Positions 25,601 through 28,600 of a DNA stretch of 64,000 nt are shown one piece after another (the first letter of the stretch is position 1; every line of letters starts with the position of its first letter). The position numbers were made by a program. Source of the stretch: Escherichia coli O157:H7 (lineage in GTDB: Bacteria > Pseudomonadota > Gammaproteobacteria > Enterobacterales > Enterobacteriaceae); NCBI RefSeq assembly GCF_013167455.1, contig NZ_CP038328.1; one strand, 5' to 3'.

Positions 25601-28600
25601 GTATCGGTGATTCAGGCAAATCAGGGAAAAATTAATGTGATGCATAGCTATCATTCGCTGGGGCGGGTATTACGCGATGCTGGTTTTCGCTTTCCGCCGC
25701 TGATTGAGAGCATTCCTGAAGGTGGGCGAATGGATGTGAGCGCGGAGCGTTTACCTGAACTGGATGCCGATTTTGTTTTTGCAACCTGGCGCGGTGACAC
25801 CGGTGGTAAACCTCAGGATGAGCTGGCAGCAATGGAAAAAGTCATGCCGGGATGGTGTCAGTTTCTGACTGCCTGTCGTTCCGGGCGTTATGTGCTGATT
25901 TCTCGTGAAGAGGCAATTTCTAACTCCTTTGCATCTCTGGGGCTGATGGCTGCGCAGATACAATCACAAATTGCGGGGCGACCTTTACCGGAGGCCAAAT
26001 GATTCAGAAAGACAAAACGCGGGTTGATATTTATGGTGAGCGTTTTCGCACTCGCGCGAGTCAGTTAACGCCTGGGTTAAGAGCTGTCGCCAGCTATATT
26101 AATGAGCATCGTGAAGTGGTACTCGATCAAACGGCGATGGAAATTGCGGCCACGTTGAACACTTCCGATGCCACAGTTATCAGGGCTATACAGGCCCTGG
26201 GGTTTGCCGGGCTGCGTGATCTGAAACGCACTCTGGAACAGTGGCTTGGTCCAGCCCTTAGTTCCAGCGAAAAGATGTCTACGACGGTGAGTAACTTGAC
26301 GAGCGATGTTAACACCGCAATCGACTTTGTTCTTGAAGGGCATTTGTATACCTGTAATGTCCTGTCAGAGCCTGAAAACCGCCACGCGCTTGCGCAAGCG
26401 GTAGCGTTGTTGGTACAGGCACGGCAAGTCGCAATTTTTGGCATTGGCGCTTCGGGTATTCTGGCGGACTATACCGCACGACTATTCAACCGCATAGGTT
26501 TGCCTGCCACGGCACTAAACCGTACGGGTATTGGCCTTGCCGAGCAACTGATTGCGCTTCAACGTGGCGATGTTCTGATCATGATGGCGCAAAAATCTGC
26601 GCACCGGGAAGGGCTGACAACGCTGCGTGAAGCGAGACGGCTGGGGATCCCTGTTATTTTGCTGACAAACGCGCTGGATTCACGTTTTAGCAAAGACGCC
26701 AGTATCGTGATTCATGTTCCGCGCGGGGATGAAAAGGGGAAAACGCCACTACATGGTACGGTATTGTTGTGCCTGGAAATGATTGTCTGGTCGGTGGCTT
26801 CCGCGGTGCCGCAGCGTGCGGTTAAAACCATTAAGCGAATTAACGATTTCCATCGGGGGCTGAAAACGGGAAGAAAGAATGGCTAATCTGACCTGAGGCC
26901 GGTAGCAACACCGGCCTCTTTTCAGGAATGTTAAATCCCTGGCTGCAGAATACGAATATTCATCTCCAGCACGTCACCTTTTACGGCTTCGCTATACGCC
27001 TTCATGTGCGGGGTTTGCAGATGCGCTTCAAGATGCGCGATGCTTTCCCACTGCTCAATCATCACGATAGAATCCGGTGCCATAGACTGGAAACTCACGC
27101 CAGCAGCGCAATCCACCATTGGCGCATAGCCGTGGCAACCTTCTTCTTTCAGTACGGTTGGAACGATTTTAGCAAACTGATCCAATACCGCCTGACGGTG
27201 ATGTTGACCAGGACGAGTACGGATTTCTGCGATTACGGTAAGCATGGTTAACTCCTTCTAAAGCCTGAGCTCTAGTTAACCAAAAATTTCCACAAGATGC
27301 TTGCGATATTCTTCAGTATAGCGGGGAACATCAGGCATTTTTATCACGTCATTAGCGATAAATGTCGGCAGCGGTTCCATACCGAGGAATTGGTTTGCTT
27401 TATGGAACGGCAGATACACACCGTCAACGCCAACGCCGTGGAAGAACTGATCTTTTTCGGTGAAGGCTTCCATTGGCGCGTTCCAGGTCAGAGAAAGCAT
27501 ATATTTTTTGCCCTGTACCAGGCCGCCGGAACCGTATTTTTTCGACGGATCTTTGCGGGTACGACCATCGCTGGCATACAGAGTCCCGTGACCTTCGGTG
27601 AATACATCATCAATGTATTTTTTCACTGTCCACGGCGCGCCCATCCACCAGCCTGGCATCTGCCAGATCACCACATCAGCCCAGAGAAAGTTTTGTACTT
27701 CCGCTTTGACATCGTAGTCGCTGTCGGCGCGAACGATGCGAACATCATGCCCGAGGTCGCGCAGTGTGCCATCCGCGACTTCGGTCAGGGTGTCGTTCAG
27801 TTGACCATTGGAGTGGGCGAATTTTTTCGCGCCGTTGATAATCAGGATGTTGCTCATTTTTTAACCTCAAGGTGAGACGTTTGCCGACTATAGTACGTCA
27901 CAGAGCGGTACGGTGAAATTAGCAAAATGTGCAAAGTCTTTTGCGAATTTAGCAAAAGTCTTACCCTTACCAGCTTACCTTCGCCTCAAATCCACCTTGT
28001 TCCGCATTCCCAAACTCAACATTCATGCCATGCAGCTTGGCGATTCGCTGGACAATCGATAGCCCAAGTCCACTGCCGGTAGCGGTTTGTCCGGGTGGGC
28101 GATAGAAGCGTTCGCCAATTCGCGCCAGTGCCTCTGGTGTCACACCGGGGCCGTTATCCCTTACGATGAAATTATCGGCATTCAGCGTGACGTCCACCAC
28201 GCTGCCCTGTGGACTGTAACGCACGGCGTTATCCAGCAAATTTCGCACCAACAAACTTAGCAATAGCGGTTGTCCGGTGCGTTTGATGCCCTGGACATTG
28301 AGTGTCAGTCGCACGTCAATTTTCGCCTGCTGCGCCGTGTGGTAAATATCCATCACCGACGATTGCAGGAGATCTTCAAGCGGGATCTCCGCGACGTCCT
28401 GAAGGTTATCCAGTGAGTCCAGCCGCGATAGCGTGAGCAGTTGATCAACCAGACGAGTAGCGCGATCGATCCCGGAATGTAATTGGAGCAGTGCTTTTTT
28501 CCGCGCCTGCGGATCATCGTCAGAGAGCTGCGCAACTTCGGTTTGCACTTTCAGCGCCGTTAACGGGCTACGAAGTTCGTGAGCTGCGTCGGAGGTAAAG

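Follow-up and report, generated by a model that had tools for sequence, protein, structure and literature searches.

The last gene of an iron-type ATP-binding cassette (ABC) transport operon in Escherichia coli O157:H7, located at 25999-26886 of a 64,000-nucleotide stretch of contig NZ_CP038328.1 (assembly GCF_013167455.1; hereafter "the window"), is almost certainly fitR, the terminal gene of the published fitBCDE-fitR operon and the autorepressor of fit. The closure of an iron-type ABC operon by an RpiR/SIS regulator is already known, and its role as FitR is experimentally supported in the literature (Ouyang and Isaacson, Open Microbiol J, 2008; PMC2593036). To this, our analysis adds a candidate operator, formed by inverted copies of ACTACTACA at the two divergent promoters of the locus, and a description of the SIS pocket, which is conserved, probably functional, yet chemically unlike the known phosphosugar pockets of SIS proteins. 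Taken as a whole, we regard as highly probable the model of a fit autorepressor that would act through this operator and be released by a ligand; substrate sensing by such a ligand-released repressor, judged by itself, we consider an evenly balanced proposition.

Identity and published regulation of FitR

The window corresponds to an E. coli O157:H7-type chromosome segment extending from glnE through exbBD, and many O157 genomes match its positions 19600-27300 with 100% identity; in O157 genomes the PGAP annotation labels the same open reading frame "MurR/RpiR family transcriptional regulator". Gene order and PGAP annotation agree with the published set of six genes, with fitA divergent from fitB-C-D-E-R and the products being a receptor, an ATPase, two permeases, a binding protein and a regulator. 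Residues 19-315 of FitE are identical to the sequence of PDB entries 3BE5 and 3BE6 (E = 5.7e-196, computed here), which we take to be FitE itself. The fit system of E. coli was reportedly first described by Ouyang and Isaacson in Infection and Immunity in 2006. Four of the primers listed in the fitR paper of 2008 (PMC2593036, Table 2) map to the window, each at a unique place and with 0-2 mismatches (Table 1); the two mismatches in one of them are explained by the use of strain i484 (O25) in the published work, the window being of the O157:H7 type. FitR of strain i484 and FitR of the window do not differ in kind, as the gene, the gene set, the description of a helix-turn-helix (HTH) and a sugar-isomerase domain, the intergenic binding and the co-repression by Fur are the same, and the 2008 paper defined neither an operator nor an effector.

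That the regulator controls the importer, as the first-pass annotation of the window had supposed, was demonstrated in 2008 using lacZ fusions, quantitative reverse-transcription polymerase chain reaction and electrophoretic mobility shift assays (EMSA). FitR, already noted at that time to combine an N-terminal HTH with a sugar-isomerase domain at the C terminus, lowers fitA and fitB reporters and transcripts when overexpressed; in a fitR insertion mutant, fitA and fitB expression goes up, and complementation restores it (PMC2593036). Purified FitR shifts the fitA-fitB intergenic DNA, with specific competition (PMC2593036). The EMSA proposed in the first-pass annotation for this region had therefore already been published with a positive outcome, on a probe corresponding to 21857-22215 of the window and in the absence of a candidate effector (PMC2593036). 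Fur also represses fit, as revealed by a 23-fold derepression in a fur mutant (PMC2593036), and the earlier supposition that this importer lies outside the usual Fur control is wrong. FitR acts independently of Fur and additively with it, the values of the fitR mutant being approximately 1.35 times those of the wild type in iron-rich and approximately 1.48 times in iron-poor (2,2'-dipyridyl) medium (PMC2593036). Since fit is Fur-repressed, FitR is an additional layer of control and no replacement for Fur. In later papers the fit substrate is reported as unknown, with enterobactin excluded, and our literature searches on an effector for FitR, on the fit substrate or on other RpiR-family regulators of iron uptake returned nothing beyond PMC2593036.

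Both domains proposed for this protein in the first-pass annotation are recovered by Pfam: HTH_6 (PF01418, residues 15-81, E = 1.9e-9), which aligns with the DNA-binding domains of RccR, NanR and YbbH, and SIS (PF01380, residues 138-247, E = 1.3e-13). An AlphaFold2 model built from a 97-sequence alignment has a mean predicted local distance difference test (pLDDT) score of 92, with residues 1-7 below 50. The top matches of this model among solved structures are RccR with 2-keto-3-deoxy-6-phosphogluconate (KDPG), Vibrio NanR with N-acetylmannosamine 6-phosphate (ManNAc-6P), pneumococcal NanR and the MurR SIS domain; Foldseek gives target-normalised template modelling (TM) scores of 0.82-0.84 against the SIS domains of MurR and of a Sphaerobacter RpiR protein. 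Note also that a mass of 28 kDa, "consistent with prediction", is given for FitR in PMC2593036, and that 32.2 kDa is the calculated mass of the 295-residue product. The construct pBAD-fitR1, which represses, begins at window position 26056 (fitR codon 20), from which it follows that the first 19 residues of FitR are dispensable for repression.

The position of fitR as the last gene of the operon, with an ATG overlapping the stop codon of the binding-protein gene, also stands as first annotated. The two genes share the ATGA at 25999-26002 (junction sequence ...GGAGGCCAAATGATTCAG), the Shine-Dalgarno sequence GGAGG of fitR is found at 25990-25994, 4 nt upstream of its ATG, and a hairpin following fitR (Table 1) marks the end of the operon. 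A separate fitR promoter, which had been named as evidence that would speak against this arrangement, was looked for, and a scan of the + strand inside fitE gave no sigma-70-like match, which is weak negative evidence. Among 58 loci of other species that have both genes, the fitE-fitR junction is a 4-nt NTGA overlap in 40 and a 1-nt overlap in one; the others comprise 14 gaps of up to 30 nt, two junctions with a 3-kb insertion and one that could not be resolved. As the 4-nt overlap is kept at 40 of the 58 loci, it is not a product of chance, and translation of fitR may be coupled to that of fitE.

Orthologues and the fitA-fitB spacer

A scan using one genome per species revealed FitR orthologues at 80 loci, all in Enterobacterales and with 66-99% identity, in three arrangements. 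The full fit locus is found in Escherichia, Enterobacter, Kosakonia, Phytobacter, Citrobacter, Klebsiella/Raoultella, Kluyvera and some Erwinia. In Tatumella, grouped with this first arrangement, the ABC genes and fitR are present and fitA was not detected. The second arrangement, seen in Pantoea, Serratia and some Erwinia, has a FitR-like gene (66-69% identity) divergent from another TonB-dependent siderophore receptor, which is 35-39% identical to FitA and has no ABC genes nearby. Such receptor-paired FitR-like genes occur, for instance, in Serratia plymuthica (L048:7445-10870) and at about 20 further loci of Pantoea, Erwinia, Serratia and Tatumella. The third arrangement, in Erwinia sp. JUb26 and Pantoea coffeiphila, has 3 kb inserted between fitE and fitR and is described below.

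When the spacers between fitA and fitB are aligned for 18 representatives from different genera, conservation is poor except for four invariant or nearly invariant blocks. Two of them resemble Fur boxes, each sitting just downstream of the -10 region of its promoter; the one close to fitB reads GAGAATGAG.TTTATTTTT across the genera. The other two blocks are TGTAGTAGTAAA at 21964-21975, 11 nt downstream of Fur-like block A, and TGACTACTACA at 22127-22137, and they lie within a pair of inverted 14-nt arms that are 93% complementary and have 150 nt between them. On the fitA strand, arm A reads TTTACTACTACATT and overlaps the -35-like TTTACT of the fitA promoter, and a partner GCTACA is found at 21995-22000. 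Arm B occupies the equivalent place at the fitB promoter (Table 1).

The 9-mer ACTACTACA contained in both arms occurs three times in the window, two of the copies being those of the fitA-fitB spacer. The third copy, at 6540-6548 inside yqiK, is probably coincidental, the chance expectation for 64 kb, both strands included, being about 0.5 copies. Within approximately 1.5 Mb of collected loci the 9-mer is present in essentially every regulator-adjacent spacer, the approximately nine copies elsewhere corresponding to chance, and the inverted pair next to Fur-like boxes is conserved over about 70 loci. Loci with the different receptor also keep Fur-like block A and, in the spacer by the receptor promoter, a module composed of the Fur-like box, TGTAGTAGTAAA, approximately 19 nt and (A/G)CTACA (in short, TGTAGTAGTAAA-N19-CTACA); (C/T)ACTACA is found near the regulator gene. 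As the TGTAGTAGTAAA and TGACTACTACA blocks are kept with a different receptor and without ABC genes, it is the regulator that they follow, not the transporter. From this pattern of conservation we infer that the inverted ACTACTACA elements are a candidate FitR operator, and the presence of two such elements and two Fur-like boxes is consistent with the published dual repression by Fur and FitR.

The SIS pocket and the possible signal of FitR

The importer that FitR controls is of the FecCD type (type II), with NCBIfam matches for all four ABC proteins: two FecCD permeases, a Peripla_BP_2-type binding protein and a FecE/FepC-like ATPase, FitB having FecE as its nearest model (280 bits, below the FecE cutoff). 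FitA scores 373.6 bits against NCBIfam TIGR01783 (cutoff 223.5), and in the PDB it comes closest to FetA, FoxA and FhuA (E = 1e-44 to 1e-49); the PDB relatives of FitE are the siderophore-binding proteins YfiY, FhuD, FepB, SirA, FeuA and CeuE. In several siderophore systems, substrate-specific control is added to Fur control, namely by the AraC-type regulators PchR (pyochelin), YbtA (yersiniabactin) and AlcR (alcaligin), or by FecIR, and the transport genes reach full expression only under low iron and in the presence of the cognate chelate. Differently from FitR, these regulators belong to other protein families and are mostly activators. FecIR moreover signals from the outer membrane via an N-terminal receptor domain; FitA residue 34 pairs with FoxA chain residue 87, indicating that this signalling domain of approximately 80 residues is absent from FitA. 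Surface signalling of the FecA/FecIR type is thus ruled out, as FitA lacks the extension and no sigma or anti-sigma factor gene was found in the fit island, and the same two observations fit a cytoplasmic one-component sensor. Control by a riboswitch or small RNA was likewise dropped, since Rfam gave no RNA family match in 19000-27500.

The best PDB matches of FitR, in sequence as well as in structure, are RccR/HexR (PDB 8JU9, 8K3B), which share its two-domain architecture and fold and control central carbon metabolism, not an iron-chelate transporter as FitR does. In RccR, the side chains that hold the phosphate of KDPG are those of S139, S183, S185 and S188, and a quadruple alanine mutant is unresponsive (PMC11014249). 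We mapped the FitR pocket by sequence alignment to RccR (23% identity) and NanR. The three loops lining the RccR cavity correspond in FitR to GIGAS (148-152), MAQKSAHRE (196-204) and PRG...PLHG (241-253); in the HMMER alignment, which is gap-free there, the four serines align with S152, A197, K199 and H202, so that only one of them is retained, together with R165 (RccR R152). The beta3 loop reads A197-Q-K199-S-A-H202, against S183-Q-S185-G-R-S188 in RccR and "SSSGST" opposite "AQKSAH" in Vibrio vulnificus NanR. Of the pattern characteristic of phosphosugar-binding SIS domains, G-x-G-x-S in beta1 and S-x-S-G-x-S/T in beta3, FitR keeps S152 of beta1 alone. The three loops are invariant or nearly so in orthologues of 13 genera (68-100% identity), including the residues that replace the serines and the whole stretch MMAQKSAHREG, and the loss of serines is consequently not a sign of decay. 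FitR also stays under the NCBIfam cutoffs, with a best score of 79.4 against a required 920 bits, and with 51.6 of 296 bits for HexR, 65.8 of 400 for AlsR and 27.8 of 408 for MurR. A SIS match in Pfam does not by itself establish phosphosugar binding, and, judging from the alignments, the FitR pocket is probably conserved for a function whose chemistry differs from that of the known phosphosugar pockets. Its invariant basic residues K199, H202, R203, R161 and R165 would suit an anionic ligand, phosphate or carboxylate.

More distant FitR relatives were collected in an exhaustive profile-free search, and twelve of their genomic contexts were taken up. Their pocket carries the signature GxGPS/T, LAYG(R/K)xY(R/P)E and PRG...LHG, which replaces the canonical serines. 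In the Orrella dioscoreae type (45% identity; L084:6010-7946), the regulator gene follows genes for a TonB receptor, an ATPase, two FecCD permeases, a binding protein and two PstS-like proteins. Among the metagenomic relatives, one (38%) stands at the head of an operon of two FecCD permeases, a binding protein and an ATPase, another (35%) is the first gene of an Fbp-like, ferric-iron-type ABC operon that faces FetAB-like and Peripla_BP_2 genes, and a third (35%) precedes a TonB-dependent receptor gene, with tonB nearby. These three relatives, at L092:6271-11911, L095:828-5696 and L099:938-5352, have the LAYGxxYxE loop. Opp/Nik-type ABC genes adjoin two of the twelve relatives, two others have only faint metal-related neighbours, and one contig was too short for a context. 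On this basis a link between the FitR-related clade and metal-chelate uptake is suggestive, at the level of a hypothesis drawn from twelve contexts. The PstS-like pair recurs closer to FitR: in Erwinia sp. JUb26 (L037:6926-9992) and Pantoea coffeiphila (L039), 3 kb inserted between fitE and fitR encode a 379-residue membrane protein and two paralogous PstS-like (PBP_like_2) proteins, both predicted to lack a signal peptide. The PepSY-like membrane protein of the Erwinia sp. JUb26 insertion matched no NCBIfam family. The two PstS-like proteins are orthologous between gamma- and betaproteobacteria (Erwinia/Pantoea against Orrella), with 34% and 46% identity.

Based on these observations and on the published work, we regard FitR as a one-component repressor of the RpiR family, made from the transcript of the importer that it controls and probably translated in step with FitE. 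As published, it binds the fitA-fitB spacer and lowers both divergent promoters, including its own. We propose that FitR oligomers would cover the two -35 regions by sitting on the inverted ACTACTACA elements, which they may bridge; the RpiR-family proteins RccR and MurR are tetramers, in which the SIS domains build both the dimer and the tetramer (PMC11014249). Fur, which represses the same promoters independently, would sit on the adjacent Fur-like boxes. Release of FitR would take place when the remodelled SIS pocket binds a small anionic, transport-linked molecule, either the chelate as imported or its derivative in the cytoplasm, and fit would then reach full expression only if iron is low and the cognate substrate is there as well.

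Several points weigh against parts of this proposal. The published FitR effect is small (approximately 2- to 5-fold) and was assayed without a candidate ligand, the protein used for EMSA was refolded after denaturing purification (PMC2593036), and the literature shows no FitR effector. The ACTACTACA blocks overlap -35-like hexamers, and their conservation could partly reflect promoter function. No match to the 19-bp Fur consensus with up to three mismatches is found in the window, and scores of at least 12/19, as those of the two Fur-like blocks, are reached by 132 site-strand matches in it (palindromic positions counted on both strands); as consensus scoring is uninformative here, the assignment of the Fur boxes relies on conservation across genera and on the published fur phenotype. 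The coupling of fitR to fitE is read from the geometry of the junction only, and three of the twelve distant relatives are without a link to a transporter.

The first-pass annotation had deduced from the SIS domain that the imported ligand, or its cytoplasmic product, resembles a sugar phosphate. In favour of this claim, the invariant basic residues could bind an anion; the pocket itself, with three of the four phosphate-binding serines replaced, gives no support to it, and the claim is weakened. A genuine phosphosugar, be it the imported ligand, its phosphorylated product or a phosphosugar of central metabolism that ties iron uptake to carbon status, is in our estimation an unlikely signal. 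Its appeal comes from the SIS fold and from the full-length similarity of FitR to regulators solved with KDPG, ManNAc-6P and N-acetylmuramic acid 6-phosphate (MurNAc-6P), from the retained S152 and R165, from K199, H202 and R203, which could hold phosphate, and from the Erwinia/Pantoea and Orrella operons that have two PstS-like genes between the binding-protein and regulator genes. It is opposed, beside the serine replacements, by scores far under every curated cutoff for phosphosugar regulators, by the resemblance of FitA and FitE to siderophore receptors and binding proteins, by the absence of the PstS-like genes from the E. coli fit locus and by that of any kinase, isomerase or sugar-catabolic gene from the locus. 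The comparison with V. vulnificus NanR (ManNAc-6P, PDB 4IVN) and E. coli MurR (MurNAc-6P, PDB 7EN5, 7EN7) is instructive: there, a phosphosugar derived from the imported substrate releases the repressor, the S-x-S-G-x-S/T loop is canonical and the operon encodes catabolic enzymes, whereas the fit locus has neither such a loop nor such enzymes.

Slightly less probable again is a ligand-independent autorepressor that caps fit expression after relief from Fur, its SIS domain serving only as an oligomerisation scaffold. Repression that is modest and similar in iron-rich and iron-poor media, the lack of a known effector and the dimers and tetramers formed by the SIS domains of RccR and MurR would all agree with this explanation. 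Yet variation at other surface positions contrasts with the invariance of the three pocket loops across genera, as expected for a binding site and not for a scaffold alone, and the wider subfamily keeps pocket motifs of its own (LAYGxxYxE, PRG...LHG). Direct binding of metal through H115, C119, H202, E204, H252 and C258, which would turn FitR into a second iron sensor, appears very improbable: these residues are invariant in orthologues and distant relatives adjoin metal-related transporters, but the FitR effect is nearly the same with and without 2,2'-dipyridyl (approximately 1.48 against 1.35) and is additive with that of Fur. A further idea is possible, if rather doubtful, namely that FitR belongs to a distinct proteobacterial clade of RpiR-like regulators that lack the phosphate-binding serines and sense an imported chelate or its breakdown product instead of a phosphosugar. 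This clade may have been wired repeatedly to TonB-dependent receptors and to FecCD, Fbp-like and Opp/Nik-like importers. In a variant of this idea, suggested by the cytoplasmic PstS-like pair of the Erwinia/Pantoea and Orrella operons, the ligand may be a phosphate-bearing iron chelate, e.g., an inositol phosphate.

The fit island and its significance

In E. coli K-12, parE and ygiN are convergent and 47 bp apart; given the shortness of that spacer, the fit region (approximately 19631-26930) is a strain-variable island of 7.3 kb. It is present at a coverage of at least 80% in 1870 of 5426 complete E. coli genomes, i.e., in about a third of them, including O157:H7 and many extraintestinal and adherent-invasive strains. 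No flanking direct repeats and no mobility genes were found at its borders. The stretch from the parE stop to the fitA stop (19631-19693) differs from the K-12 parE-ygiN spacer and carries a hairpin terminator of its own (CCCGGTATAC...GTATACCGGG, then a T-run). A second strain difference near the island is the absence of ygiZ, which K-12 has between qseC and mdaB and in place of which the window has a gap of approximately 110 bp (27858-27966). Further away, yqhG (40300-41222) is annotated as a frameshifted pseudogene in the matching O157 reference. The exbB and exbD genes, whose products energise TonB-dependent receptors such as FitA, are found at 46888-48054, 20 kb downstream of fit; their nearness is probably a matter of core-genome synteny, unrelated to the island.

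Table 1. Positions of fit genes, regulatory elements and published primers in the window.
Feature	Position	Strand	Description
fitA	19694-21835	-	TonB-dependent siderophore receptor, 713 amino acids; PGAP agrees
Divergent fitA/fitB promoter-regulatory region	21836-22208		373-bp AT-rich spacer
"fit promoter" primer pair	22192-22215 and 21857-21878		0 and 2 mismatches, respectively; primer mapping
Fur-box-like block A, TGTAATTGAGAATCATTCAA	21933-21952		By the fitA promoter; 12/19 of the Fur consensus; near-invariant in the 18 representatives
Candidate FitR operator arm A, AATGTAGTAGTAAA	21962-21975		Invariant block and inverted repeat I1
Candidate FitR operator arm B, TTGACTACTACATT	22126-22139		Overlaps the -35-like TTGACT of the fitB promoter
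Fur-box-like block B, GAGAATGAGTTTTATTTTT	22162-22180		Just upstream of fitB; 12-13/19 of the Fur consensus
fitB	22209-23018	+	ABC ATPase, GTG start
fitC	23015-23998	+	FecCD-family permease
fitD	23995-25044	+	FecCD-family permease; PGAP start 24007
fitE	25055-26002	+	Periplasmic iron-siderophore binding protein
fitE/fitR ATGA overlap	25999-26002	+	fitR ATG 25999-26001, fitE TGA 26000-26002
fitR	25999-26886	+	295 amino acids; HTH_6 and SIS (RpiR/MurR family)
fitR quantitative PCR primer	26102-26125		Primer mapping
fitR cloning primer	26866-26883		Directly before the stop codon; primer mapping
Terminator hairpin and U-run	26895-26922		GC-rich, between convergent fitR and ygiN; -25.5 kcal/mol, z -4.53

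The fit genes have been proposed as a strain marker and are induced by iron limitation in Klebsiella. The leads that go beyond the 2008 paper are the candidate operator, the invariant residues of the remodelled pocket, the pairing of FitR-like regulators with orphan receptors, the PstS-like pair and the association, in other lineages, of related regulators with importers of the TonB, FecCD and Fbp types. These leads are modest and are not discoveries. If the imported chelate is what FitR responds to, a reporter of the fit promoter in a fur background could provide a direct screen for the substrate; and should a chelate-sensing clade prove true, it would represent a new class of SIS effectors as well as a new family of regulators that give iron uptake substrate-specific control.

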